DNA from: Nostoc punctiforme PCC 73102
Lineage (GTDB): Bacteria > Cyanobacteriota > Cyanobacteriia > Cyanobacteriales > Nostocaceae
NCBI RefSeq assembly: GCF_000020025.1
Contig: NC_010628.1
Coordinates: 7,890,001-7,922,000 of the forward strand
Length of the DNA stretch: 32,000 bases
Direction of reading: 5' to 3'
The notes under the pieces: model-generated
Told to the model about the DNA's origin: nothing
The model's input: only the letters and a program-made list of their open reading frames with translations
Database searches by the model: none
Shown here: piece after piece, positions 5,586 through 30,795 of the stretch
How positions within the stretch are numbered: position 1 is the first letter of the stretch
Layout: the number at the start of each line of letters is the position of its first letter
Made by a program: the position numbers and the translations under genes

Positions 5586-8500
5586 ATGGAACTGAAAAAT
5601 CACTGGTTTGCTGTAAATAAAGTTGTTTTACCACGACTACTACAGTGGGTGAATCTCCGGCCAGAGGAGAGTGAACGAACTCAGCTAATGTTTATTTTTT
5701 ACACAACTGTATGTGTAGGATTGCGGTGGGCAGAAGACAGTACGGTGGCGCTGTTTTTGGATGAATATGGGACTCATCTATTGCCGTGGATGTATATTGC
5801 CAGCGCTGTTATGAGCGCAGCACTGGTTTTTTTATACTCTTGGCTGCAAAGGATTTTTCCCTTACGCCGGGTGATTGTAGCGATCGCACCTTGCATGTTG
5901 ATGCCATTACTTCTATTAGTTTTATTACGTTGGGGATCTCATGTTTCTTACCTGGTAGTTATTTCGGCCTTTCTGCTGCGGCTATGGGTAGATGCCCTTT
6001 ATGTAGTTAACGATCTCAACACCTCCATCGTCGCTAACCAAATATTTAACATTCGAGAGATTAAACGGACTTACCCACTTGTGAGTAGTGGGCTTTTGGT
6101 AGCAGATGTGATTAGTGGCTTTAGTTTGCCTTGGCTAGTGCAATACACCTCACTGAATAAGATCATCTTCATTGCCTGTGTAGTGATTTTATTAGGATCG
6201 GCGATTTTATTCTATTTAACTAATCACTATCGAGCGGCTTTTCCTGAAACCCCACAAAGACTAATTCCTGAAGAACAAGCTTCACGAGAGCGCTTTATTA
6301 AAAGTCCGCTGAAGCGCTATGTTTGGCAATTATTTGCTTTTGTCGGTCTGTTGCAAGTTATTGGGTTATTAATAGATTTTCAATATCTGCGCGAACTCAA
6401 ATCCAATATGAGCGACCGAGAACTCGCCAGTTTCTTGGGTCTTTTTGGTGGCATGTTGGGACTGTGTGAATTGTTATTGCAGTGGTTTATTTCCAGCCGA
6501 CTCATTGAACGGATGGGGGTATTTTTCACAGCGACACTTTTACCAATCACCGTAGGCTTTTCACTACCAGGAGTGCTGGTATTTTTGCATTTAATTCCAG
6601 GCATACAATCGCAAAGCTTTTTCTGGGGTCTGATAATTGTCAAATTTTGCGATGAACTTCTGCGCTATACCTTTGTCATGAGTAGCGGCCCCATCCTGTA
6701 CCAACCGATTCCTGAGTCAATTCGCAGCCGGATGCAGACTTTATCTGGCGGAACAGCCGAAGCGATCGCTACAGGTTTGACAGGAGCGCTAATTTTTGCA
6801 ACTCTATTGTTTTGTAACCGCTTTGTACCCGTATCCCTGCAAAAGTGGGTGTTGGTGGCAGAAACAATGCTGATAGCTAGCACCTGTTTAAAAGTAGTTT
6901 GGGAATTGCGATCGCGTTACGTTGAACTGTTAGTCTTGAGTGTGGCACGGGGCCAGTTGAGTGCAAGCAATGTCGGCTTACGATTCTTCAAGCAAGGTGT
7001 AGTCAAAGCCTTGGGAGAAAAAGGCAGCGAGGCAGATAAACGCTCTTGTATTGAACTTTTAGCCCAAATTGACTCTCAAGGAGCTGCGGAAGTTTTAGCA
7101 CCCCTGTTAGTTAAATTAACCCCAGATTTGCAGCGCCAAAGTTTGGAAGTGATGCTGACAGCTGGTGCAAATCCCGCTTATCTATCCGCCATTCGTCCTT
7201 TGTTAGAACAACCCCAAGAAACTAACCCCGAAGTTTTCGCCCTAGCACTACGTTACGTTTGGCTAGCTGAACCAAATCCCAATTTAAGCATTCTAGAAGA
7301 ATATCTTAACCCCCGGCAAAACTCACTCATCCGCGCTACCGCCGCCGCTTTAGTCTTACGTCAGGGAACGCCCATGCAAAAGGTAGCAGCTACCCAAACT
7401 ATGCGCCGGATGTTGACTCATAAGAAAGAACGGGAACGGGTGAATGGAGTTAGAGCGCTTAGAGAAGCAGTTTATTTACAAGCGTTGCGGATTCACATCC
7501 CAAATTTATTACAAGATGAATCGTTACGGGTGCGCTGTGCTGTATTGGAAATGATTGCAGCAACCCATTTAGAGGAATACTATTCGGCGCTGATTGCAGC
7601 ACTTTATTACAAATCAACCCGCACTATAGCAATGTCATCCCTAGTGCGACTAGAAAATGAAGCGATAGAGATGCTGTTGCGGTTAGCTAACAATATTTAC
7701 AAACCAGAAGTAGTGCGGATGTACGCTTGGCGTACCATTGCTCAAATTGGCACTCAGGAAGCATTAGAGACCTTATGGGAAAACTTGGAGGCATCCTGGG
7801 GTATAACTAGGGATCATATTCTTCGGAGCTTACTAAAAATACATAAACAACCAGGAATTAGAGGTTTAGTAGATCGGTTTTATGAAAGTCGGGTAGAAAA
7901 TTTAATTGAGCAGGAATTAAAGTTTTTAGGTGAGATTTATGGTGCATATATAGACTTGAAAATATTAGATGAAAAAGAAAATCATCAATCAAGCCAGAGG
8001 ATTGTGATTGTCTCTGAGTTACTCCAACGCGCCCTTTTAGAATTGGAATTGGATGTGAAAGAGCGGCTGCTACTGTTGCTCAGACTGCTTTACTCACCAG
8101 AAAAGATGCAGGCAGCAGCATTTAATCTGCGATCGCTCTCAGTGGTAAACTTAGCACGGGGTTTAGAAATCTTAGAGCATACCGTAACTTTGCCTTGCAA
8201 GTCTCTGTTACTGAATATTTTAGATAACCGACCGCAATCAGAAAAATTGCAACATCTTGTAGAAGCCAAGATCGTAGAATATGAGAATATGCTAGTTAGC
8301 GATCGCCTCCACAGATTGCTGATGTTAGGTAACTTCCTTTCTGATTGGTGTCTAGCTTGTTGTTTCCATTTTGCTCAAGTGGCTCGGATTAAACTTACCA
8401 GTTCTGAGATTTTAGTAAGTTTGCGTCATCCAACAGGCTTTGTTAGAGAAGCTGCGATCGCATATCTAAATATGGTTTCACATCGCGTTCTCCTGCAAAT

Positions 8501-11248: not shown

Positions 11249-12802
11249 TTAATCATCATCTAACTTCAACAATTGTTCATCAAGATTTTGTATCCGTCCG
11301 CGCACAATTTCTTCTGAGAGAATTCGCTTCCGCATCGCCTCATTAAGCGCTCCTTTTTCTGCCAGCAGTAAACGGCGGCGAATGGCATCAAGTTTGCCAC
11401 TGCTGTTACTTTTGCCATTTACATCATCAGGACGACGATTATAAAGTTCCCGCAGTGTCTTTTCTGCACCGGCAATTCGCACTTGATAAGCTGAACGCAT
11501 CTCTTCATAAACAGCTTTTGGTAGTACACCTGATTTCAACAAGCTATCTAATTCATCTTGTGCGGCCTTACCCGTCATCAACTGGGCTTGTAACTCTTCA
11601 ACCTGTTGTTGAACTTCAGAAAATTTAGATAACTGTAAACGTTTTACCACCCAAGGCAAACTTAAACCCTGTCCAACTAACGACACCAGCACACTACCAA
11701 AAACTAAAGCGATGAGAACATCTCGCCCTGGTAATGTTTCTGGTAAACTCAATGCCAGAGCCATCGAGAGCGAACCTTTGATATTACCTAAAAAGAGTAA
11801 ATGTTGCCAGCGCAACGGAATTGGACGGTCAATCAAACGAATCCCTGCTAGCAACGGATAGACTGTCAGAACTCGCCCAACTTGATAAGCCAAAACTGCA
11901 AATATAATTGCAGGTAAAGTTCTCCAGAGCGTTACCAGGTCTATTTCTACACCAATTAACAGAAAAATAAAGGTGTTGACGGTAAAACTGGCATACTCCC
12001 AAAAACTCAACAAAGTGATGCGACTAGAAGCAGAAGTATTTTGAGAAAGCCCTAAATTCCCGAAAATTAATCCAGCGACAACTACAGCCACCGCACCCGA
12101 TACACCAAGAAATTGCCCAACCTGAAAAGTTCCCAATGCAACTGCAACTGTTAGTAATAAGCTGCTAAGGGCATCATCCAAACGGGCGAATACAGGTATG
12201 CTCAAGTAGCCCAAGACTAACCCTACCAGGCAGCCTCCTAAAGAGATAAATAGCAGTTGTTGGATTCCCTCTACAAATGTGAGTGAACCTGTAGAATATA
12301 CTTGCAAAATTAGGTTGAATGAAACTAGGGCAGCTGCATCATTAAATAAAGTTTCTCCTTCAACGATGGTGGAAAGCCGGGAGGGTACTGGTATTTCCTT
12401 AAAGACGGCAATCATGGAAACTGTATCAGTATTTGCCAGAATTACTCCGACAAATAACGCAGGTATCCAACTCAGCCCCAGCCCAAATTTTAGTAAGGCG
12501 GCAATAATTCCACTGGAAAGCACAGCCCCAGGCCCAGCTAGCAGGGCAATTGGTTTAAAGGTGCTGCGTAGGCGGCTGACATCTGTATTAATGCCAGCTT
12601 CAAAGATGAGAATTGGCAAGAAAAGATTTAAAACAAGGGTTGGATTTAAACCAATCGGACGAGATAATAGCTCAGTGATTGGTAAACCTGCCAATACTAA
12701 ACCCGTGACATAAGGGATTCGCAACCGTCGGGATAGCAAAGCTACTCCTGTAGCAAGGAGCAAAAGAATAATTGAAACTTTGACTAATTCGGTAACATCC
12801 AC
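11249..12802 (-). CDS. Na+/H+ antiporter, CPA1 (NhaP-type) with a cytoplasmic helical C-terminal tail
   Basis: 517 aa with about 12 TM helices. It carries ILANTDTVSM and GETLFNDAAALVSFNL motifs. The tail is a ~110-aa coiled-coil-like segment. Confidence 0.85.
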   Translation of the reverse strand: MDVTELVKVSIILLLLATGVALLSRRLRIPYVTGLVLAGLPITELLSRPIGLNPTLVLNLFLPILIFEAGINTDVSRLRSTFKPIALLAGPGAVLSSGIIAALLKFGLGLSWIPALFVGVILANTDTVSMIAVFKEIPVPSRLSTIVEGETLFNDAAALVSFNLILQVYSTGSLTFVEGIQQLLFISLGGCLVGLVLGYLSIPVFARLDDALSSLLLTVAVALGTFQVGQFLGVSGAVAVVVAGLIFGNLGLSQNTSASSRITLLSFWEYASFTVNTFIFLLIGVEIDLVTLWRTLPAIIFAVLAYQVGRVLTVYPLLAGIRLIDRPIPLRWQHLLFLGNIKGSLSMALALSLPETLPGRDVLIALVFGSVLVSLVGQGLSLPWVVKRLQLSKFSEVQQQVEELQAQLMTGKAAQDELDSLLKSGVLPKAVYEEMRSAYQVRIAGAEKTLRELYNRRPDDVNGKSNSSGKLDAIRRRLLLAEKGALNEAMRKRILSEEIVRGRIQNLDEQLLKLDDD

Positions 12803-14079: not shown

Positions 14080-15627
14080 ATGGTGGTTGAATCAGCGATC
14101 GCAGAGGAAGTTATTACAAATAATCTCAAGCAGTTTCTTTTGGTACTTTCGGTGTCTCTGGGTGTGGCAACATTACCGCAGGTATTTAGCTGGTTTCGCA
14201 ATATCCCTTACACCTTGCTACTGGTGATTGTCGGGTTAGGTTTGGCCTTTGTTGATGTTCGTTTAGTAACCCTTTCCCCGGAATTAATTTTGTTCATTTT
14301 TTTACCACCGCTGCTATTTGAAGCTGCATGGAATTTGAAATGGTCAGAACTGAAGCGGGATTTAGTACCAATTTGCTTGTATGCAGTGTTTGGGGTGGTA
14401 ATTGCGATCGCCGGGGTAGCGATCGCTCTCAATCAATTCATTGGTATTTCTCTAACTACAGCTTTACTCATCGCCGCCAGCCTATCTGCAACCGATCCTG
14501 TTTCTGTCACCGCTTTGTTCCGTCAACTCGGCGTAGGTAGTCGTCTTACCACTTTAATGGAAGGCGAAAGCTTATTCAATGATGGTATGGCTGTAGTTGC
14601 CTTTAGTTTTGTGGTGGCCTTATCTTTGGGAACTGTCGAATTGGAATTCCAGCCCATCTTATTGCAGTTATTTACAGTTGTTGGCATCGGTGTAGGAGTG
14701 GGGGCTTTCATTGGATTTGGGATTTCCTACCTCACCCAGCGCTTCGATTTGCCCTTAGTAGAACAATCCTTAACCCTAGTTTCCGCTTACGGCACTTACC
14801 TAATTATTGAAGACTTAGGTGGTTCTGGGGTAATTGGAGTTGTCACCACAGGTTTGATTTTAGGCAACTTTGGCTCTCGTATTGGTATGAATCCCCGCAC
14901 CCGGATTATTGTCTCCGAATTTTGGGAATTTTTGGCGTTCTTTGTTAACTCAATTGTCTTTTTGCTGATTGGCGACCAAATACGCTTTGCTAGTTTGGGC
15001 GAAAACTTGCAAATCATTATAGTGACAGTGATAGCAATGATTTTGATGCGGGCAGTTGCTCTTTTGATTCTCAGCAAATTGAGTACTAGCATCACCAGAT
15101 CGGATATTTCTTTACCAGAACAAACGATCCTATGGTGGGGCGGGTTACGCGGTTCCGTTTCCATTGCCCTGGCATTAAGTGTATCGACTATACTGCCAGA
15201 GCGAGAAAAAATTATTGCAACGGTATTTGGAGTAGTTCTATTTACTCTACTTGTTCAAGGATTGAGCATCAAACCTTTGTTGGAAAAACTCAATTTACTA
15301 GGTGATGCACCCTTACGTGAGGAATATTTAGAATTAGTTGCCCGTCATATTGCCTTAGAACGCGTTTTGCAACACCTCCAAGCAGACAAACGTCCCGGCA
15401 TCGACCCAGAGTTTCGCCGTTATCAGGAGACACTAATCAAAAGTGAACTTGCAGATTTACGGACAAAAATTGACAATTTACAGGATGAATATCCTAATCT
15501 TCAGAGCTTTACAACAGAACAATTCCGAGGAGAACTGCTGGCAATTGAAGCAGATACTTATGCAGAATTTGTTAAGTCTGGTCGGTTAAATAAAGAATTA
15601 GCATCTATGCTTGAGGATGTTTTGTAG
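14080..15627 (+). CDS. Na+/H+ antiporter, CPA1 (NhaP-type), paralog of 11249-12802
   Basis: 515 aa. It carries ASLSATDPVSV and GESLFNDGMAVVAFSF motifs and has the same architecture, including the helical tail. It is divergent from the DUF389 gene across only 51 bp. Confidence 0.85.
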   Translation: MVVESAIAEEVITNNLKQFLLVLSVSLGVATLPQVFSWFRNIPYTLLLVIVGLGLAFVDVRLVTLSPELILFIFLPPLLFEAAWNLKWSELKRDLVPICLYAVFGVVIAIAGVAIALNQFIGISLTTALLIAASLSATDPVSVTALFRQLGVGSRLTTLMEGESLFNDGMAVVAFSFVVALSLGTVELEFQPILLQLFTVVGIGVGVGAFIGFGISYLTQRFDLPLVEQSLTLVSAYGTYLIIEDLGGSGVIGVVTTGLILGNFGSRIGMNPRTRIIVSEFWEFLAFFVNSIVFLLIGDQIRFASLGENLQIIIVTVIAMILMRAVALLILSKLSTSITRSDISLPEQTILWWGGLRGSVSIALALSVSTILPEREKIIATVFGVVLFTLLVQGLSIKPLLEKLNLLGDAPLREEYLELVARHIALERVLQHLQADKRPGIDPEFRRYQETLIKSELADLRTKIDNLQDEYPNLQSFTTEQFRGELLAIEADTYAEFVKSGRLNKELASMLEDVL

Positions 15628-22438: not shown

Positions 22439-23929
22439 TTAACTATATTTGAGAAGGCGTAAGCCCTCTAAGCGGAGAGCTTCAGGATATAGAGCTTTAT
22501 AAATATTGCAATTTGGAGATTGAATATCATAACGGCCTGTAGCCTTAAACGTAGCCAGAGAGCAACCACCCGTACACCAGTATTTCCATTCACATGTACG
22601 ACAGCCTTCTTTTTCCTCAACAGATAAATTCTGAATACCTGTTTTATCTTGTCGCACAACAGTTAAAGGATCTTGAGCATCAACAGAGGATATAGTTTTA
22701 TGTAGCTGCATCTGACATTTGGCAATTTGTCCTTGGTAATCAAATACAAGATAGCTTTGCCCAACTCCACAAGTTCGTTTATGAGGAGATGCTAAATTAG
22801 CACGATCAACTAATGAACCTAATAAGCTACGATTAGGTAATTTCAATTCAATAACTTTGAATGCTGCTAACATTCCCTGAATCATTCTATATTCTTCTAG
22901 TTGCAAATCTTCGTAAGAAGCTGACAATTCATTTTCACGATAAAAGTTTAAACTAAAGGGCAGATTATGCTCCAATATCCATTCAATCAGATCGGGTAAT
23001 CCTTCTGCATTGCGCCCGCTAATGGTAATGGAAATATCGGGTACTAGCCCATTTGCTAAAGCAATCTTAATACCCCTTTCCACATCTTGAAATGAACCCT
23101 TTCCACCTGCATAAGTTCGTTGGATATTGTGGAAATCTGATAATCCATCTAGTGAAATCATGAGACGCAGATTCAATATTTTAAGCATCTCGATAATCTC
23201 AGGCGTAATCAATATTCCATTAGTGAGAACAACTCCATCTAATATAATGCCTCTTTCCTTGCTAAGTGATTGAGCATATAAATGCAGTTCTTTAATTAAA
23301 GCAGAGCATAATAATGCTTCTCCTCCCGCATACTTTAGTTTGACGCGGCGGTAATTATTTAAGCTAGCAGAGCGAAATATAGATTCAATAGCTGCTCTGC
23401 CTATATCTATTGACATATCCCTGGCTAAATGAGGAAGATAGCAGTAGTCACATCTTAAGTTACAGCGATCGGTGATATGTAACCATGCAGATAAAGTTTC
23501 TGGTATTTCATTTAGGTTAAATGGGCTATTGTTTTTAGGAATAATTAAACGGGCTTGATATAGTTCCTGAATAGCTGTCTGTAAGTCGGTTTGGTTAATG
23601 TGATAATTCTCTTTTGTGATCTCATCTAATTTATGAGAATTTGTAAATGTATTTCGTAAATATAATGCGGATTCATTTAGAACTGCTACTTTATGATTAC
23701 CATAACAGATAGAGTAAGTATCATCTAGATTCATTATTTGCGAATTGGGAGATATGACAAACTCTGTCTCAAATATCCCCAGAGATAATGATGTATCTGA
23801 GCCTAATTCTGCTAAAGGGGATAAGTCACAGGCACAATCCCCTCCATCACAATCGCATTGTCCAGTTAGTACGCAGGTAGAATTGAGAGAAACTAAAATT
23901 CTGGGTCGATCAATTTTTTTACTAAGCAT
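22439..23929 (-). CDS. Radical SAM/SPASM-domain enzyme with an N-terminal Cys/Asp-rich segment and an RRE (PqqD-like) region
   Basis: The rSAM cluster motif is HITDRCNLRCDYCY and the SAM-binding motif is KYAGGEALL. The SPASM motif is CRTCEWKYWCTGGC (Cx2Cx5Cx3C), with upstream CGVGQSYLVFDYQGQIAKC and downstream SPNCNIY. The first ATG (23929) overlaps the upstream stop as ATGCTTAG. The track start at 23953 is a GTG. Confidence 0.85.
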   Translation of the reverse strand: MLSKKIDRPRILVSLNSTCVLTGQCDCDGGDCACDLSPLAELGSDTSLSLGIFETEFVISPNSQIMNLDDTYSICYGNHKVAVLNESALYLRNTFTNSHKLDEITKENYHINQTDLQTAIQELYQARLIIPKNNSPFNLNEIPETLSAWLHITDRCNLRCDYCYLPHLARDMSIDIGRAAIESIFRSASLNNYRRVKLKYAGGEALLCSALIKELHLYAQSLSKERGIILDGVVLTNGILITPEIIEMLKILNLRLMISLDGLSDFHNIQRTYAGGKGSFQDVERGIKIALANGLVPDISITISGRNAEGLPDLIEWILEHNLPFSLNFYRENELSASYEDLQLEEYRMIQGMLAAFKVIELKLPNRSLLGSLVDRANLASPHKRTCGVGQSYLVFDYQGQIAKCQMQLHKTISSVDAQDPLTVVRQDKTGIQNLSVEEKEGCRTCEWKYWCTGGCSLATFKATGRYDIQSPNCNIYKALYPEALRLEGLRLLKYS

Positions 23930-26714
23930 GAGAAGATGGCTGTTTTGTTGCACGGATTCTAGTCAAAAACATTTGTTGATCGCACCATTCTTTGAGAGCT
24001 TTATTGTCTTGCCAATGATGTTTGAGTTGCTGGATTAGGGTTTTAGAAAGTTCTATAGGCAACCGTTCGATTTTCTTTTGGAGCAGATTTAACTCATGTT
24101 GGATCGAATAGGGCCCAAAACCTCCATCCTGGAAGATTTGGGGTATGCCTTGAGCATATTTTGCAAAGGCAAGATCGTAGTTCGCCTGTTGAAATGCAAC
24201 ATCACCTTCTATCCGTAACATCCGACCAAAGTACAGTTGATAGGTATTTTGATATGACTGGAAGCGATCGCTAAGTTCTCGTGCATAATCTGAAATATGC
24301 TGGTATGCTTTTGCATAATAATCAAACTCTGCTTTCCCTACCAGGCTATCGATGGCATACCGCCTGTCATTGTACTCTAGACTAGTGTGGTAAGAGCGAT
24401 CGTTGAGTTTGAGAGCTTGTTCTTGCAAAGAGCGATCGCACTTTTGAAACCCAAGATGCCAGTAAACACTGGCCGTTTGATGCCAAATTCCAGGCAATTC
24501 CTCTTCCAGTCCATATTTTTCTGCCAGTTTCAGGCTTTTTTCTAAAGCATCTTGAGCCTGACTTAGCACATCTAGATCCCACTTTACCTGTGTTACATCC
24601 CAAACGGCTTCATTTAGTACCTCGGCACTAAACCACTGATTTAAGCCTAAATGAAAGTATGCCCTACACAATATTCGATTATCATCTTCCTCATTATTGC
24701 AACGACTTAATGCTCGTTCAAGTAGCTGTTTAGCTTTAACATAGTTCCCCTCATTTACCGAAATAGTCGCAGAGGCAATTTCAGCGTTGGCAATTTCGCG
24801 TTCAGTCTCTACACTCGCCCACATATCAATAGCAGCCTTAAAACACTGTTCAGACTTAATATAATTTTTTTGTAGACCGTATAAATATCCCAAGTTATTC
24901 TGAATACTAGCCATAACTTGAGTTAAGCCTTTGTTAGGAGTGTCAACTTCCATAGCAGCATCCCAACCTAGTTTGTAATATTTTTCAGCTTCGTTAAAAT
25001 TGTTCAGTTGTCGATACAGATAACCAACTTGGTTCGCTACACCTGGAATAGCAGATGCTAGCTTTTTCTCTTGAACCAGAGATAAACACTTTTGCTGATA
25101 TTTCAAAGCTTCCTCATAAAGATGTAACTTAGCATTCAGCATTCCCAAGACATTGCAAAGGTCTGGTTGATGAGAAGAATTAGAAGATTTATCAGCTAAC
25201 ATAGCTTCTAATTTTTTCACTTCATTTTCTGTTGTACCCTTGTCTTTAAGGGCGTGGACAAGCTTTGCTTCAAAAATAATCAATTTAAATCTTTGGTCGA
25301 AATTTAGTTGTTTTTCAAACTGTTTTACAACCGCCAATAATTGATTAACAAAGCTGAATTTCTTTGATTGACTGCGTATCGTATTAGTAACTTCATGCCA
25401 AGTTTCAAAGCCGATAGTTGGGTCAGCCTCTAAAGCATTCCATAGCCATCGTCTTGTATTGAATTCTCGCTGCTGTTTTAGTTCTTCAATTAGAAACTCA
25501 ATATTAGCGGCTTTATTATAATTATCAGAATAAAGTTGAACCTCCAATATCCTTTTCTGCGGCCCTAGCTGATAATCTTTTTTCTCAAAATATTTGGATG
25601 CAATCCGACTATCTCGTTTTCTCCATTCAAAATCTGGGTCAATATCTGCCCATACATATTTATTAACCAAGTCTCGCACAATATCATGCAATGCTATTTG
25701 AGAACCACTGATTACTGGTTTGATAAAAAAGTAGCTCTGAGCATCAATAAATAATTTTTGAGCATCTTCTATCGATAGTTCTAATAGATTAGCAATATCA
25801 GAACTATCTAATGGATAAATACGTGAAAGTAACAAGGTTAGCCTATCCATTGATGTCCGAAGCTGCGTAATATGTCGAACCATCTCAGCTTCAAATCCAC
25901 CCGTTTTTTCTAACCTGGCTGGAATAGTTTCTATATCTTCACTCTCTAACCAATCTGGAATAACTTCTCGATAAGCATATTCTACTCCAAATTCAATCAT
26001 AATGGGGCTACCACCAGAAAGAACTATGATCTTTTGAACTAAGTCTTTCCCAAGAGTAAAATGAAGTTGCTCCTCTTTGGAAAGAATGTATGTCTGTACA
26101 TCTTCATGAGTAAATTCATTTAACTCCAAATAAGTTAATTCTGCTTCTGTAAACGATTTTTCCAAAATTTGGCGAGCAATACTAGGGCGGCCTGCTAAAA
26201 TCAATACGGCATTATCTAGTTGCTGGCATAGATTACCAATATATTCCCAAACTTCCGCTCTTCCCTCTGCTTGTCCTAACTTCTCAACTGTATCAATTAA
26301 AAATACTAATCTCTTTTGTTTAGATTTTCGATTAATTTCATCGACTAAAAACTTTTCAAGTTGTCTGCGTTCTTCTTGGTATGCAGTTTGACTGAGGTGG
26401 TTTTCATCTTCTCGTAGTTGTCGTAATCGGAGCAGCCATTCTTGATATGTATTCTCATACAATTGCTTAGCGATTTGAGTGCATAAATCTTCTGCATCGT
26501 TAAAAACAGGAGTATCGCAATCAATAATTTCACTTGTTCCAATGTTTACTTGATTGAGGCGGTTTTGTAATTCATTAAGCAACCAAGTTTTGCCAATTCC
26601 GCCTCTACCCTCCACCAAAACAACATGAAGCTTATTAGCTTTTTGAACAAGGGTAATAATTCGATTTAGATGTTCTTCACGACCAACAAACTCTAATTTA
26701 TCTATTTCAGACAT
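23922..26714 (-). CDS. STAND-class P-loop NTPase (AAA_16/NB-ARC-like) with a C-terminal TPR repeat array
   Basis: 930 aa. FVGREEHLNRI precedes the Walker A GRGGIGKTWLL. Walker B is RLVFLIDTVE and the GxP-like motif is LSGGSPIM. From about residue 520 there are TPR-like units (NVLGMLNAKLHLYEEALKYQQKCL, NQVGYLYRQLNNFNEAEKYYK, NNLGYLYGLQKNYIKSEQCFKAAI and others). AGGAG sits upstream of the ATG. Confidence 0.8.
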   Translation of the reverse strand: MSEIDKLEFVGREEHLNRIITLVQKANKLHVVLVEGRGGIGKTWLLNELQNRLNQVNIGTSEIIDCDTPVFNDAEDLCTQIAKQLYENTYQEWLLRLRQLREDENHLSQTAYQEERRQLEKFLVDEINRKSKQKRLVFLIDTVEKLGQAEGRAEVWEYIGNLCQQLDNAVLILAGRPSIARQILEKSFTEAELTYLELNEFTHEDVQTYILSKEEQLHFTLGKDLVQKIIVLSGGSPIMIEFGVEYAYREVIPDWLESEDIETIPARLEKTGGFEAEMVRHITQLRTSMDRLTLLLSRIYPLDSSDIANLLELSIEDAQKLFIDAQSYFFIKPVISGSQIALHDIVRDLVNKYVWADIDPDFEWRKRDSRIASKYFEKKDYQLGPQKRILEVQLYSDNYNKAANIEFLIEELKQQREFNTRRWLWNALEADPTIGFETWHEVTNTIRSQSKKFSFVNQLLAVVKQFEKQLNFDQRFKLIIFEAKLVHALKDKGTTENEVKKLEAMLADKSSNSSHQPDLCNVLGMLNAKLHLYEEALKYQQKCLSLVQEKKLASAIPGVANQVGYLYRQLNNFNEAEKYYKLGWDAAMEVDTPNKGLTQVMASIQNNLGYLYGLQKNYIKSEQCFKAAIDMWASVETEREIANAEIASATISVNEGNYVKAKQLLERALSRCNNEEDDNRILCRAYFHLGLNQWFSAEVLNEAVWDVTQVKWDLDVLSQAQDALEKSLKLAEKYGLEEELPGIWHQTASVYWHLGFQKCDRSLQEQALKLNDRSYHTSLEYNDRRYAIDSLVGKAEFDYYAKAYQHISDYARELSDRFQSYQNTYQLYFGRMLRIEGDVAFQQANYDLAFAKYAQGIPQIFQDGGFGPYSIQHELNLLQKKIERLPIELSKTLIQQLKHHWQDNKALKEWCDQQMFLTRIRATKQPSSHA

Positions 26715-26728
26715 AATAGGCTCCTGAG

Positions 26729-28387
26729 TTAATTATTTTGAATAGCTTCATCAAGCTTATGAATTAAATAGTTATAGGGTGTGTCATTATATTCCTCATT
26801 GTGAAGATAGTAATTTACAAGAAACTGAAATTCCCAGTCATGCTCTACTTCAGATTTAAGCGTAGACAGAAATTCATGGGTTTGCTCTCGGTCTGTATTG
26901 CGGAATATTCCAATAGTTTCTTCAACAGTTTCGTCAAAGAAAGTTTTACGAAGTTCTTTTCGATAAGTCAAACTATCAGTACCAGAATTGATAAATCCAG
27001 CATGTTGCTGAAGACTTTGAAAAAAATACTGCATTGACCAAGTTCCCGCCACCGCAGAATCATTCTTGGATTTAAGCTCGTGAACATATTCCCAGCAAAT
27101 TTGAGCTGCTTCGCTACAAAGCTTTTGAAAGCTATCAGGTGAGCTTTCTCGGAGAAGGCCAATAACTAGCAGCCGACGGGTCATTCCATCTTTGATAATT
27201 GTTTTATCACGAGTAAAAATTGATGTCTTTGTCAGTTCGGCGTTTAATTTAAAGCTATCATCACTAAAAGGTAACTGAAATCTTCTAACGGCTTCCTTTA
27301 ATATCCAATTTCCATTTAGTATAGGAAATATACTAAGTTTTTCAATAGATTCGTATAGATTATTGTTTTCTTTTGTCAAGCTTTCTTTAATCTGATCTCT
27401 ACAATGTTTGAGGGTTTTTTCCCATAATTTGCTACCATAAGTTTTTAAAAACAAATTAACTGTGTAACCACCACTTCGATAAACTTTTAGGGCTTCAGCA
27501 ATCCCCCCTGGATGTCCGCCAGTTAGATAAAGTAAGTGTCCTGCTAGTAGTGCAAGACTTTCAGAGGTCATCTCAATCGGCTTGAGATATTTGGTCGCTG
27601 TATCTTGAATAACTTCCCAGTTAAAAGGTGAGAGAATTAGTTTAGGAAGAATCCGATCTGGAGGAAGATCGGTAAGACAGCGAGCTGCAATTACAACTCG
27701 AAGACTCTTGGAATTATCTTTAAAGAATTGTAATTCTTTCAAACAATTTTCAATTCTCCATCCTAATTCTTTAAGCTGAACAAAAATTTCACTTAAACGT
27801 TGTTTTTGTGGGGCATTTCCATCCAGATCGATTAGCAATACAATACCTTTTTGCCCCTGCGATTGCCACCTAGCCCAATTTCTATGTAATAATAAACCTA
27901 AGCGTTCTCCCCAAGGCAACTCATTCCCTTCTTCAATCTTTAGACTGAGAGAATTAGCTAATTCTTTTTCTAAGTCTTCAATATTTTGATCGCCGGACAT
28001 GGAAGCATAAGCGCAACACCATTGTAATTCTTGAAAGCGCTTCTGGATCTGTTTGAGAAATTCGGTTTTTCCGTAACCTTTAGGAGCCGTTATCAAACGA
28101 TAAGTAGGAGAATTATTTGCTGTAATATCACTAATTGCAGCATCCCGATTAGTAAATGGTATTTTATCAGGATCAACTTGCTCTAGAGTTTCTTGATTTA
28201 GCTGGCTTAACTCTGATTCAGCTTTTTCTATTTCCTTAAATTTATTCTCAAGTTGCCTTTCTAATTGATCTTTCTGTACATTATTTAGCGTCCACCCTAT
28301 TTGGTTGCTGAGACTTTCAATGTCAGTGGTTAAACGGGCTATTAACTGCTCAAGAGACTTCTTTCGTAAATCTAAGGAATTTTTCAT
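26729..28387 (-). CDS. STAND-like P-loop NTPase with an N-terminal coiled-coil adaptor head and no recognisable repeat sensor
   Basis: 552 aa. Residues 7-63 are heptad-like helix. FTNRDAAISDI precedes the Walker A APKGYGKTEF. Walker B is GIVLLIDLDG and the GxP-like motif is YLTGGHPGGIAEAL. The C-terminal ~200 aa are helical with no family I recognise. Confidence 0.7.
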   Translation of the reverse strand: MKNSLDLRKKSLEQLIARLTTDIESLSNQIGWTLNNVQKDQLERQLENKFKEIEKAESELSQLNQETLEQVDPDKIPFTNRDAAISDITANNSPTYRLITAPKGYGKTEFLKQIQKRFQELQWCCAYASMSGDQNIEDLEKELANSLSLKIEEGNELPWGERLGLLLHRNWARWQSQGQKGIVLLIDLDGNAPQKQRLSEIFVQLKELGWRIENCLKELQFFKDNSKSLRVVIAARCLTDLPPDRILPKLILSPFNWEVIQDTATKYLKPIEMTSESLALLAGHLLYLTGGHPGGIAEALKVYRSGGYTVNLFLKTYGSKLWEKTLKHCRDQIKESLTKENNNLYESIEKLSIFPILNGNWILKEAVRRFQLPFSDDSFKLNAELTKTSIFTRDKTIIKDGMTRRLLVIGLLRESSPDSFQKLCSEAAQICWEYVHELKSKNDSAVAGTWSMQYFFQSLQQHAGFINSGTDSLTYRKELRKTFFDETVEETIGIFRNTDREQTHEFLSTLKSEVEHDWEFQFLVNYYLHNEEYNDTPYNYLIHKLDEAIQNN

Positions 28388-28392
28388 TGCAT

Positions 28393-29280
28393 TTAAATGG
28401 CATTAAGTTCGCTTTCTACTCGACCGAGTTCTTGGAGTATGGTGTTGATTTGGCGCTGAATGATATTGCGATCGCTCGCAGCGAGTGTATAGTTAAGCTG
28501 GTTGTATGCTGCTTCGTAGTCACTGCTTAGAACCTCAAAGCGTTGTTGCAAAGTCTTAATTTTGAGTTGTTGTACCCGGCTGGGGCTATTCTGAGTATGT
28601 GCATTTGATGAAATCGGCAAGGTTATTTCATCCCATGCTTTGCTCAATACGTCCACCGGAATCATGAAAGCAGTCTTGATATCTTCTCGCTGTTTCTCCG
28701 CCGCTACAGCCATACCAACCACTCCTGCAAGGGTTTCATCCCATATAGGCGCACCACTAAAGCCCGGTTCTATCCTGTAGCCAGTTACCTTACTATCTTC
28801 CAATTGCACCCATCCCTTTCCTTGCCCATCTCGCAACACCCCTGTAGACCAAACGCCATCATTGTGCCCGTGAGGAAAACCAAATATGCGGAAAGGATGT
28901 CCCCAAACGTTATTAGCCCAGATGAGCTTAATAGGTTGCGCTTCATGAGGTAATTGTCCTTCTATTTGCAACCCGGCAATATCTTCAGGTTCGGAGGTTG
29001 ATACATTGTTGACAACAGGTTGCCAAAAAACAACTTTAGCTTTTAGTTTTTGCCCTGGTGCAATTAGGGGGAAATCTAAGCAAATATCATGACTAGGAGC
29101 TTCAACTATATCTTCTGGTAAAGATAGAGCCGAAGTAACAACGTGAGCGCATGTCAGGATATAATTTTGACTTCGCCCTGACACTAAAAAACCTACACCA
29201 ACTACCGCACCATTCGGATGAAAAATCCGAGCGATCGCTGATCTAAAAGCTGGAATATAATTATCTGCAATCGATGCCAT
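28393..29280 (-). CDS. Trypsin-like (S1/Trypsin_2) serine protease with a C-terminal ~57-aa helical tail
   Basis: 295 aa. The catalytic triad candidates are His46 (LTCAHVV), Asp100 (PEDIAGLQI) and Ser175 (EPGFSGAPIW). The tail, residues 239-295, reads LKIKTLQQRFEVLSSDYEAAYNQLNYTLAASDRNIIQRQINTILQELGRVESELNAI. Confidence 0.8.
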   Translation of the reverse strand: MASIADNYIPAFRSAIARIFHPNGAVVGVGFLVSGRSQNYILTCAHVVTSALSLPEDIVEAPSHDICLDFPLIAPGQKLKAKVVFWQPVVNNVSTSEPEDIAGLQIEGQLPHEAQPIKLIWANNVWGHPFRIFGFPHGHNDGVWSTGVLRDGQGKGWVQLEDSKVTGYRIEPGFSGAPIWDETLAGVVGMAVAAEKQREDIKTAFMIPVDVLSKAWDEITLPISSNAHTQNSPSRVQQLKIKTLQQRFEVLSSDYEAAYNQLNYTLAASDRNIIQRQINTILQELGRVESELNAI

Positions 29281-29286
29281 ACGTTA

Positions 29287-29628
29287 CTATGCCTTGTCTT
29301 GCTTCCATTTCAAGGTAATTTCGTAGTTAGCTTCACCACCTACAGAAGTGAAAATTGCACCTGCAACAGCATTTAATTTAATACCAAATTTCACCTCTAC
29401 CTCATCGGCAGGTGTATTAAGCTGACTCAGTTTGATGATAATTGCTGAAGCTACAGGTTGTATTTGATCCAATACTTCATCAAATTTCTTTTTAGCTTCA
29501 ACTACTATTTGCCCAGCATCTGGTCTAGCAACACGTACAAGAGAATTGCTATTTTCTGGCTCATCAACTTCAGCTAAAAACTTTGTGCCATCTTCTAGAG
29601 AAAACTCTGTTATCTGTTTCCGAATCAT
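29287..29628 (-). CDS. Trypco2-like (trypsin-co-occurring domain / CU044_2847-like) small protein
   Basis: 113 aa from the ATG at 29628; the track start at 29649 is a TTG. The pattern FSLEDGTKFLAEVDEPE...VEAKKKFDEVLDQIQPVA...PADEVEVKFGIKLNAVAGAIF...EANYEITLKW matches my recollection of this family, which sits beside trypsin-like peptidases. The stop lies 6 nt before the protease ATG. Confidence 0.6.
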   Translation of the reverse strand: MIRKQITEFSLEDGTKFLAEVDEPENSNSLVRVARPDAGQIVVEAKKKFDEVLDQIQPVASAIIIKLSQLNTPADEVEVKFGIKLNAVAGAIFTSVGGEANYEITLKWKQDKA

Positions 29629-29764
29629 AGTAAGACCTGTTATTTTCAATTAATAGTTGAATGTGTAAATAATCAAGATATCTTGTCGAAGTTTTTTGGA
29701 GATAATCTTATTTTCATCTAAGAGGTTGTTTTCAAAGTGTTTGGCTGTGCTTTTAAGTACTTCT

Positions 29765-30040
29765 AGATTCCCCCTAACCCCCCTTTTTAAGAGCTACCGT
29801 GTATACACAAGTCGTATTACCCCCCTTAATCCCCCCGATATATTGGGGGGAAATAATATTTCCGGTTCCCTCACCTTTATAAGGGGAGGGTTAGGGTGGG
29901 GTAAAACCTGTGTTCTTCAGCTATTTTCAGACTTGTGTATACACCGTAGCTTTTTAAGAGGGGGGAACCGGAATTAAAGTCCCCTTTTAAAGGGGATTTG
30001 GGGGTATTTAGAACTTTTAATACCGACAAGGGGACTTTTA
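29765..30040. repeat. Composite MITE-like block of nested G-run/C-run hairpins
   Basis: AGCTACCGTGTATACACAAGTC (29792-29813) pairs with GACTTGTGTATACACCGTAGCT (29930-29951) with one mismatch. Internal palindromes include CCCCCCGATATATTGGGGGG (29831-29850), ATTTCCGGTTC/GAACCGGAAT and AGTCCCCTT/AAGGGGACT. The track ORF 29696-29977 merely reads through this block. Confidence 0.75.
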
Positions 30041-30137: not shown

Positions 30138-30499
30138 AATGCTTGCTGCAAACTTTTCTTGGTCAATTCTAGAAGTTTGTGAAGTTTCTTAATAAACTGA
30201 CCAACTTTCGGCTGTTTGGGCGTTAAAGCTGTTTGACTCTCATGTAATAGATTTAACAATTAATATATTAATGGTTATATTAGTTATATATGGACTCTAA
30301 CTTCAATTAGTAATTATACTGAGTTAAACTCTGGCAAGGAAACTAAGGTATAGTGCAAGCCTAGGAGTTTCAAGTAGTTTTTAGCCTTGCATTTCGAGTC
30401 TTAGCGGGTTTAGTAATACTCTTTAATTAAGGCAAAAGATGCGATTTATCGGGTTTTTGTGATGTTTATAGCAATCCTGAATCATTGCTGATAAACACA

Positions 30500-30530
30500 G
30501 ATCCCCGACTTCTTAAAGAAGTCGGGGATC
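30500..30530. repeat. Perfect 31-nt palindrome
   Basis: GATCCCCGACTTCTTAAAGAAGTCGGGGATC has 15-nt arms. It resembles dispersed Nostoc-type hairpin repeats. Confidence 0.85.
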
Positions 30531-30795
30531 TGGGGGTTGCAATTCTTACAAATCAAATAGGATCGCTACTGAACGGCGCGATCGCACTGTGAAATTATGT
30601 ACGTACTGTTCAATATGCTTGTGTGGAAATGATAAATACTTACAGCATAAGAGTTTCAGCAATGATAGTCGAATGAGCGTTAGCGTAGCTCATCGTAGAC
30701 ATCGCTTGAATAAGTAGACGCATAAACTATCATTTGGAATGCAAAAATATAGGTGTTGGAAAAAAATAAATTTTTCCAATTTGGCAAACAATCCA

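Follow-up and report, generated by a model that had tools for sequence, protein, structure and literature searches.

The window analysed here, a stretch of 32,000 nucleotides (nt) from Nostoc punctiforme PCC 73102 (contig NC_010628.1, positions 7,890,001 to 7,922,000 of the forward strand), encodes on its minus strand a 295-residue trypsin-like protease (28393-29280) and, immediately downstream, a 552-residue product with the motifs of a STAND NTPase (26729-28387), both delimited from the list of open reading frames (ORFs) and the raw sequence. This arrangement raises the question of whether the C-terminal tail of the protease and the N-terminal head of the next product are related modules by which the two proteins could be coupled. 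Judged by sequence, tail and head are paralogues that both belong to effector-associated domain 9 (EAD9), which is already catalogued (Pfam PF19962), and we consider it probable that docking between the two copies couples a death module composed of Trypco1 and the protease to the STAND NTPase.

EAD9 on either side of a gene junction

The protease ends in ...LKIKTLQQRFEVLSSDYEAAYNQLNYTLAASDRNIIQRQINTILQELGRVESELNAI, and the 552-residue product begins with MKNSLD-LRKKSLEQLIARLTTDIESLSNQIGWTLNNVQKDQLERQLENKFKEIEKAESELSQL. The preliminary description of this DNA had paired protease residues 239-295 (encoded at 28396-28566, minus strand) with residues 7-63 of the next product (28199-28369, minus strand) in a gapless alignment of 57 residues, which proved exact: the alignment holds 18 identities (~32%) and 36 positives with a BLOSUM62 score of 87, and both peptides had been quoted correctly. 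The spacing of about 20 nt given for the two modules was roughly right, the aligned blocks being separated by 26 nt, made up of the protease stop codon (28393-28395), 5 intergenic nt and six head codons (sequence and ORF coordinates place the stop codon and gap together at 28388..28395, minus strand). In the shuffle control that had been proposed along with the alignment, none of 20,000 composition-preserving shuffles reached the score of 87 (Smith-Waterman mean 24.6, standard deviation 4.7, maximum 53), 20,000 shuffles of one partner that preserved the heptad register reached 63 at most, and the largest number of identities in any shuffle was 13, compared to 18 in the real pair. As the real score lies far beyond both types of shuffle, the similarity is not an artefact of coiled-coil composition.

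That the two modules are homologous is borne out by Pfam, as both match PF19962 end to end. With a gathering cut-off of 25 bits and a profile length of 62 positions, the tail (protease residues 234-295; 28396..28581, minus strand) scored 81.7 bits (E 3.3e-23, profile positions 1-62) and the head (residues 4-63 of the 552-residue product; 28199..28378, minus strand) 61.4 bits (E 6.8e-17). These are the sole EAD9 matches in a six-frame translation of the window, and each is terminal in its protein. The class named earlier, that of the effector-associated domains (EADs), was the correct one, and annotations of orthologues already carry the name, both at NCBI (P0023, "Effector-associated domain-containing protein") and at JGI (P0106, "Trypsin-like peptidase domain/Effector-associated domain 9").

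EADs were defined as small, non-enzymatic, mostly helical and terminal domains, copies of which occur on a core component and on an effector or signalling enzyme, usually a neighbouring one, and were proposed to couple the two homotypically, much as Death-fold adaptors do (Kaur, Burroughs, Iyer & Aravind, eLife 2020, PMC7159879). EAD9 was grouped with those EADs that "primarily recruit the signaling components" (PMC7159879), and the 'EAD principle' was formalised in a follow-up paper (PMC8195603). The organising logic invoked earlier for this locus, a small adaptor shared by enzyme and NTPase, is this published principle (PMC7159879), and the coupling is backed by the fusions, the pairing and the family-wide within-locus similarity described below. 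Both EAD9 as a domain and the hypothesis of homotypic coupling are already known, and were rediscovered here from sequence alone.

Alignment-based AlphaFold2 (AF2) models of the 552-residue protein and the protease (mean predicted local distance difference test scores, pLDDT, of 84.6 and 82.4, respectively) predicted each EAD9 as an all-alpha hairpin of ~60 residues, which a linker of low confidence connects to the enzyme. In the tail, a loop separates helices at residues 235-262 and 268-294 (block pLDDT 84-95), and the flexible linker extends over protease residues 216-233 (28582..28635, minus strand), with pLDDT <50 at residues 224-229; in the head, helices at residues 4-32 and 36-66 likewise enclose a loop (block pLDDT 83-91) and are followed by a low-confidence linker at residues 67-72. 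A Death-like fold (CARD, DD, DED or PYD) was considered for EAD9 and rejected, as two predicted helices in ~60 residues stand against a six-helix bundle of ~80-100 residues; no Death-fold chain was found at E<=1 when PDB sequences were searched with the EAD9 profile, no profile-profile comparison having been made. The principle of the shared adaptor thus survives from the earlier parallel with Death-fold and CARD signalling, whereas the comparison with CARD itself is an analogy only, because the predicted EAD9 is a two-helix hairpin and not a six-helix bundle.

Pairing, fusion and exchange in related loci

A genome scan identified 46 Nostocales loci with NTPases 74-95% identical to that of the window (P0001 is 99% identical to the window product), and wherever the contig permits these loci carry all five genes of the operon in the same order: Trypco1, trypsin-like protease with EAD9 tail, EAD9-headed 552-residue STAND, NACHT-TPR STAND and radical SAM/SPASM enzyme. 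To look further afield, a first word-indexed search with the EAD9 alignment, which returned only 7 short fragments, was replaced by an exhaustive search with a profile built from the window pair. This profile matched only 213 clusters in 1.84 billion representative proteins. In 120 representatives of at least 100 residues, EAD9 was N-terminal in 49, C-terminal in 63 and internal in 8 (112/120 terminal). All 99 of the matching representatives that were tested were confirmed as EAD9 by Pfam, with partner domains that included TIR, EAD1, EAD7, trypsin, VMAP, kinase, CHAT and iSTAND, and the 25 commonest families did not include an active STAND.

The usual context, as seen for ten partner proteins from metagenomic loci, is Trypco1, trypsin-EAD9 and then an EAD9-headed iSTAND (5/10) or VMAP (5/10), with genes for MoxR, vWA and an FGE-sulfatase-family (PF03781) protein next in line in the three loci whose neighbourhood was read (L047-L049); this is the layout of the ternary systems of Kaur et al. 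The preliminary description had conceded that orthologous operons devoid of the paired module would speak against it. Apart from the 46 Nostocales loci, the gene downstream of an EAD9-tailed protease could be read in 15 loci outside Nostoc. In 14 of these it begins with EAD9, and in the apparent exception, L070, it has a divergent N-terminus that is head-like by eye and lies upstream of a MoxR-like gene. The objection that the paired module might be absent therefore fails. On one Pseudanabaena contig (L048:1-9527) the cassette is present twice in inverted orientation, in the order BSH_RND RND-adaptor, Trypco1, protease-EAD9, BrnT-like toxin, 102-residue product and EAD9-iSTAND, such that the BrnT toxin gene and the unannotated 102-residue gene separate the tail gene from the head gene.

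Across 12 independent loci, tails and heads of the same pair were 45.7% identical, compared to 28.2% for cross pairs (permutation p<1e-5), and 8 of the 12 tails ranked their own head first. Tail and head DNA is near-identical in L061 (581-1830; 91% over 164 nt), where the head-bearing ORF has only 93 residues, and in L073 (2436-4514; 83% over 142 nt), suggesting that the sequence was recently duplicated, or homogenised by gene conversion, over the junction of the two genes. The excess of own-pair identity, together with these two loci, indicates that repeated local duplication, gene conversion or convergent co-evolution is real in the family, as already stated for repeated duplication, conversion or co-evolution of EAD copies by Kaur et al. 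(PMC7159879).

At the window locus itself, the suggestion that the module arose by local duplication across the junction was not borne out, although recent homogenisation does occur in other lineages. Tail and head DNA of the window are 41.5% identical in codon register, their best local DNA alignment spans 19 nt, and the Nostocales tails and heads form separate, long-diverged groups, so that a recent local duplication at this locus is ruled out. Since tail-head similarity in Nostocales is equal within and between loci, the pair is old and inherited, and predates the radiation of the order. The two copies have since fared differently: over 38 Nostocales loci, mean pairwise identity was 85.8% for the protease core, 87.5% for the tail and 74.6% for protease residues 216-238 (the least conserved part), and 66.4% for the head, 83.5% for the NOD and 86.2% for the C-terminal domain of the NTPase. 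The tail is hence conserved like the protease core, and the head has a far higher rate of change than the remainder of the NTPase (L001-L046), the positions that are fixed in heads being largely those shared with tails.

Distant homologues of the 552-residue NTPase (30-34% identity over 85-95% of the length; 63% for P0048) keep the body of the protein and vary at the N-terminus. In P0055 and P0056 a trypsin domain is fused directly to the NTPase body at the position of the head, without EAD9; in P0048 a TIR domain takes the place of EAD9; and other homologues carry unrelated modules there. In L051, Trypco1 lies ahead of the fused trypsin-NTPase and genes for NB-ARC, TPR and radical SAM proteins lie behind it; in L052, NACHT-TPR and radical SAM genes come after the TIR-NTPase. 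From the side of the protease, P0134 unites protease, EAD9 and iSTAND in one chain, and in P0115 a 67%-identical protease is fused to a different P-loop NTPase (AAA_22/AAA_35), again without EAD9. In Nostoc sp. 'Peltigera membranacea cyanobiont' 232 (L007:6275-7380), a head-type EAD9 has taken the place of the protease tail; it shares 93% identity with the head of L025 and 77% with that of its own locus and is flanked by a duplicated 'SRVQ.LKI', with the original tail surviving downstream as a decaying, out-of-frame remnant. Taken as a set, these fusions and the exchange in L007 are what is classically seen when a pair of modules acts as a single joint.

Further variants were noted in the course of these comparisons. 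P0163 has a protease-TIR-EAD9 architecture. Independent in-frame stop codons lie inside the head EAD9 of L026 and L030 (near 7198-7330), two different small insertions with terminal inverted repeats, resembling miniature inverted-repeat transposable elements, split the tail EAD9 of L008 (1296-1420) and L037 (6556-6840), and Trypco1 is largely deleted in L011 and L023. Four of these six natural cassette lesions fall in the EAD9 joint.

The operon and its two STAND proteins

The five minus-strand genes are close-packed, with successive gaps of 6, 5, 14 and -32 nt, and the operon is conserved in about 45 Nostocales genomes. The first, 6 nt upstream of the protease gene and kept in this position across the Nostocales loci, encodes Trypco1/Pepco (29287..29649, minus strand; Pfam PF19493 Trypco1, E 6.4e-26; NCBIfam CU044_2847 family, E 1.4e-20); its ORF comprises 120 residues from a TTG start, the true start likely being the Met at residue 8. 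The trypsin-like serine protease domain (residues 28-215; 28636..29199, minus strand; Pfam Trypsin_2, E 7.4e-13; Trypsin, E 2.4e-5) was predicted by AF2 to have a beta-rich core and looks catalytically competent, its triad H46, D100 and S175 (GFSGAP) being invariant in 42 homologues. It has at least 337 relatives; of the 120 listed, nearly all are trypsin-EAD9 proteins from cyanobacteria with a length of ~290 residues. PADLOC returned only weak LmuA and PDC-M35A matches for the protease, pVip-like matches for the radical SAM enzyme and no match for Trypco1 or the 552-residue NTPase.

Pepco (Trypco1/2) is a beta-barrel pore that is activated by C-terminal cleavage by an associated trypsin-like protease: in the Avs4 system the trypsin-like protease of the sensor trims the C-terminal tail of Pepco and a lethal pore results, the cleavage being known only for SsPepco (PMC12642450). 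By analogy, Trypco1 of the window is presumed to be a latent pore-forming effector that is cleaved by the protease. The protease, which had been cast as the effector, is then probably not the terminal one and most likely serves to activate the Trypco1/Pepco pore protein encoded upstream. In the window, as in SsPepco/SsAvs4, Trypco1/Pepco lies immediately upstream of a trypsin-like protease under STAND control (putatively so in the window), and in the known system cleavage of the Pepco protein unleashes a beta-barrel pore (PMC12642450). SsAvs4 has its protease within the STAND polypeptide itself, whereas the protease of the window stands alone and is presumably joined by the EAD9 pair. L051 is the fused version, comparable to SsAvs4, within the window's own NTPase family.

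The body of the 552-residue protein (residues 76-552; 26729..28162, minus strand) was assigned from motifs, Foldseek and weak Pfam matches. Its NOD displays a Walker A motif 'PKGYGKT', a Walker B motif 'LLIDLD' and 'TGGHPG', and none of GYGKT, LLIDLD and GGHPG varies when the protein is aligned with distant homologues. Pfam matches stayed below threshold (AAA_22, 21.5 bits with 27 required, and ATPase_2), and the best Foldseek matches were the plant CNLs Sr35 and ZAR1, CED-4, Apaf-1 and the helper NLRs NRC2/3/4 (E 8e-6 to 1e-4), with Roq1 also among the top matches and entries 4m9s, 2a5y, 8jns and 5juy in the CED-4/Apaf-1 comparison. By its intact, invariant motifs and these NLR and CED-4 fold matches the protein is an apparently active, NB-ARC-like STAND NTPase. 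An assignment as iSTAND or VMAP was rejected, as Pfam matched neither family and similarity to iSTAND is detectable only in EAD9. The earlier identification of the partner as a STAND NTPase therefore holds, but without sensor repeats: no repeat family was matched by Pfam in the 552-residue protein, the C-terminal 240 residues of which follow the NOD as a compact helical domain in the AF2 model, and the TPRs sit on a separate protein.

This separate protein, encoded next (23922..26714, minus strand), is a second STAND NTPase of 930 residues with a NOD matching NACHT (5e-10), nSTAND1 (4e-9) and NB-ARC (3e-7), followed by TPRs (TPR_12, 4e-13); the NODs of the two STANDs align colinearly but weakly (22% over 241 residues), and the NACHT-TPR protein is a candidate sensor. 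The last gene, the start of which overlaps the preceding one by 32 nt, encodes a 504-residue radical SAM/SPASM enzyme (22439..23953, minus strand; Pfam Radical_SAM, 9e-17) that resembles SPASM-type peptide maturases, with PapB as best NCBIfam match (E 3.7e-41, 141 bits, under the 340-bit cut-off). EAD9 was not matched in the NACHT-TPR, radical SAM or Trypco1 products, and the NACHT-TPR protein has no EAD of any kind.

The last three genes recur as a core in distant lineages (window 22439-28387, minus strand; L051, L052 and L053): a sensor-less, NB-ARC-like STAND with variable N-terminus (EAD9, trypsin, TIR or other), a NACHT/NB-ARC-TPR STAND of ~930 residues and a maturase-like radical SAM/SPASM enzyme of ~500 residues. 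A homologue of the 930-residue STAND is kept beside the homologue of the 552-residue NTPase in all three loci, and the radical SAM gene is last in these as in the Nostocales loci; in L053, a Desulfobacterales contig, two uncharacterised genes lie between the NTPase and STAND-TPR genes of the same trio. A system of two STANDs and a radical SAM enzyme was not described in the literature searched.

Sensor and helper NLRs work in pairs in NAIP-NLRC4 and in the plant sensor NLR-NRC network. By an architectural analogy only, the adjacent STANDs of the window are similar, in that the 930-residue protein has repeats of the ligand-binding type and no output domain and the 552-residue protein has an output adaptor and no repeats; the conserved radical SAM enzyme of the window has no counterpart in those pairs. 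We tentatively raise the possibility, with rather less than even confidence, that the core hosting EAD9 is an undescribed immune core, in which a sensor-less, CED-4-like STAND has a swappable N-terminal output socket (EAD9 in Nostoc; elsewhere a fused trypsin, a fused TIR or some other module) and is invariably succeeded by two genes, one for a NACHT/NB-ARC-TPR STAND and one for a maturase-like radical SAM/SPASM enzyme. Bacteria would then possess a 'sensor NLR + helper NLR' pair that depends on a radical-SAM partner and to which the Pepco-protease module is attached non-covalently via EAD9.

The described systems closest to the window locus are the MoxR-vWA ternary systems with iSTAND or VMAP (PMC7159879). 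Like the window, they have PF19962 at the C-terminus of a Trypco1-linked protease (50-67% identical to the window's) and at the N-terminus of the next product, and the same homotypic coupling has been proposed for them. Their head is borne by an inactive STAND (iSTAND) or VMAP, succeeded by MoxR, vWA and often a PF03781 protein, whereas in the window an NTPase of the NB-ARC-like type, both of its Walker motifs (A and B) intact, bears the head, and the genes that come next encode the NACHT-TPR STAND and the radical SAM/SPASM enzyme. As no match to MoxR, vWA, iSTAND or VMAP was found in the five operon products and 10 other window ORFs of at least 245 residues, we rejected the assignment of the window locus to these systems.

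Elsewhere in the window, promoter and terminator scans gave background-level signals only, and no tRNAs were found. Perfect GC-rich hairpins lie in the non-coding DNA upstream of the operon at 29830-29851, 29980-29996 and 30498-30532, one of them with a 16-bp stem (CAGATCCCCGACTTCT...AGAAGTCGGGGATCTG), and may be dispersed cyanobacterial repeats or terminators. Two divergent Na+/H+ exchanger paralogues (11249-12802, minus strand, and 14080-15627, plus strand; both Pfam Na_H_Exchanger, ~1e-69), with a DUF389 gene between them, are unrelated to the EAD9 pair.

Probable docking and its alternatives

In the CED-4/CED-3 and Apaf-1/caspase-9 apoptosomes, NTPase and caspase share a six-helix CARD adaptor, and CED-4 is a protein of ~550 residues without repeat sensors. 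By analogy, the system of the window resembles these in function, as well as the bacterial CARD-gasdermin systems. Akin to the apoptosomes, it combines a 552-residue NTPase (N-terminal helical adaptor, NB-ARC NOD and helical domains) with a protease that bears the same type of adaptor, for which activation by proximity would be expected; unlike in the apoptosomes, the adaptor is a two-helix EAD9 at the C-terminus of a trypsin-like protease, and the interaction is putative. The gasdermin operons also encode a pore protein, an adaptor-bearing trypsin-like protease and an NLR-like ATPase, and the CARD on the protease is essential for pore activation (Wein et al., PMC10312443). Their adaptor differs in that the protease carries it N-terminally and that it is a genuine CARD of the Death fold, the CARD-like domain borne by the NLR is C-terminal and apparently auto-repressive, and the pore is a gasdermin (PMC10312443).

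In light of the homology, predicted fold, terminal placement, operon conservation, swapped and fused relatives and family-wide within-locus excess similarity set out above, we infer that tail and head form a complex, in all likelihood a bundle of four helices, by which the protease would be attached non-covalently where relatives carry a fused trypsin or TIR domain. The contact could be a constitutive tether or an induced one and might, as suggested before, keep the protease auto-inhibited. The CED-4-like NTPase would then oligomerise in an NTP-dependent manner, probably triggered through the NACHT-TPR STAND acting as sensor, with a role in the same pathway conceivable for the radical SAM enzyme, and the oligomer would cluster and activate the docked proteases. 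Cleavage of Trypco1/Pepco as the putative substrate, a step proposed from the Pepco cleavage experiments (PMC12642450), would finally yield a membrane-permeabilising beta-barrel and cell death, that is, abortive defence.

Several observations weigh against docking of tail and head. Within the Nostocales, tail-to-head identity was 33.4% within a locus and 33.2% between loci (41 loci; permutation p=0.16), and the putative partners evolve at very different rates (87.5% identity for the tail, 66.4% for the head; 87% and 66% on average over the 41 loci), whereas simple tight co-evolution predicts otherwise. When 19 heads are ranked by similarity to the window tail, that of its own locus comes 5th, and some foreign heads are closer to the tail (43% for that of L049) than its own head is (32%). 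Among PDB sequences, the EAD9 profile matched designed antiparallel coiled coils and prefoldin, none of them significantly, with no solved EAD9 structure among them, and in the searchable literature EAD9 in this sense appears only in the 2020 paper, with no experimental work on it found. Lastly, the window Trypco1 has ~9 residues after the conserved 'YEI' motif, whereas SsPepco loses a tail of ~2 kDa, suggesting that the details of the cleavage may differ.

Some of these points would be accounted for under the main rival explanation, that each EAD9 only self-associates, the tail oligomerising the protease for activation by proximity and the head aiding oligomerisation of the NTPase, with coupling through other surfaces. 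Amphipathic helical hairpins often homo-oligomerise, and both the high conservation of the tail alongside a drifting head and the lack of within-locus covariation in Nostocales are compatible with this explanation. We nonetheless regard it as unlikely, since it leaves unexplained why, in each of the related loci examined, two neighbouring products share one and the same rare domain, why own pairs are more alike than cross pairs, why an enzyme is fused exactly at the head position in NTPase homologues and why a head-type copy could replace the tail in L007. Alternatively, both EAD9s might dock on a third partner, for which the candidates are the NACHT-TPR protein, the barrel formed by Trypco1 or products of EAD9 genes at other sites in the genome, or the tail might be mainly an intramolecular auto-inhibitor of the protease. 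The NACHT-TPR and radical SAM genes are indeed conserved neighbours, further EAD copies are often encoded elsewhere in the same organism (Kaur et al., PMC7159879), and in the gasdermin system from Lysobacter a CARD-like domain on the NLR-like protein behaves as an auto-repressor (PMC10312443). That the NACHT-TPR, radical SAM and Trypco1 products are without EAD9, and that the iSTAND and VMAP systems retain the tail/head pairing despite entirely different downstream partners, which leaves the head as the sole constant partner of the tail, make a third partner quite improbable, and auto-inhibition is equally so with the tail predicted to be set apart from the protease core by a low-confidence linker. 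As for a chance alignment of two low-complexity, coiled-coil-like segments of no common origin, the segments are both helical, rich in Glu, Gln and Leu, and 32% identical, but no shuffle, heptad-preserving ones included, attained their score, the curated Pfam matches have E<=1e-16 and the 99 profile matches tested are all EAD9; chance similarity, to which we attach a vanishingly small probability, is excluded.

Taken together, docking of the EAD9 tail on the EAD9 head is the explanation we favour. What is new here is that the EAD9 partner is an apparently active STAND in a conserved core of STAND, STAND-TPR and radical SAM enzyme, and not a component of the described MoxR-vWA systems. The presence of EAD9 on such an NB-ARC-like STAND, outside the MoxR-vWA systems, indicates that the adaptor moves between unrelated cores. 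The relatives provide a natural series for testing homotypic docking, namely the split pair of Nostoc, the trypsin fusion of L051, the TIR fusion of L052, the replacement of tail by head in L007 and the natural knock-outs of tail or head, while the trio of STAND, STAND-TPR and radical SAM enzyme is a candidate for a new defence architecture with the flavour of a sensor/helper NLR pair.

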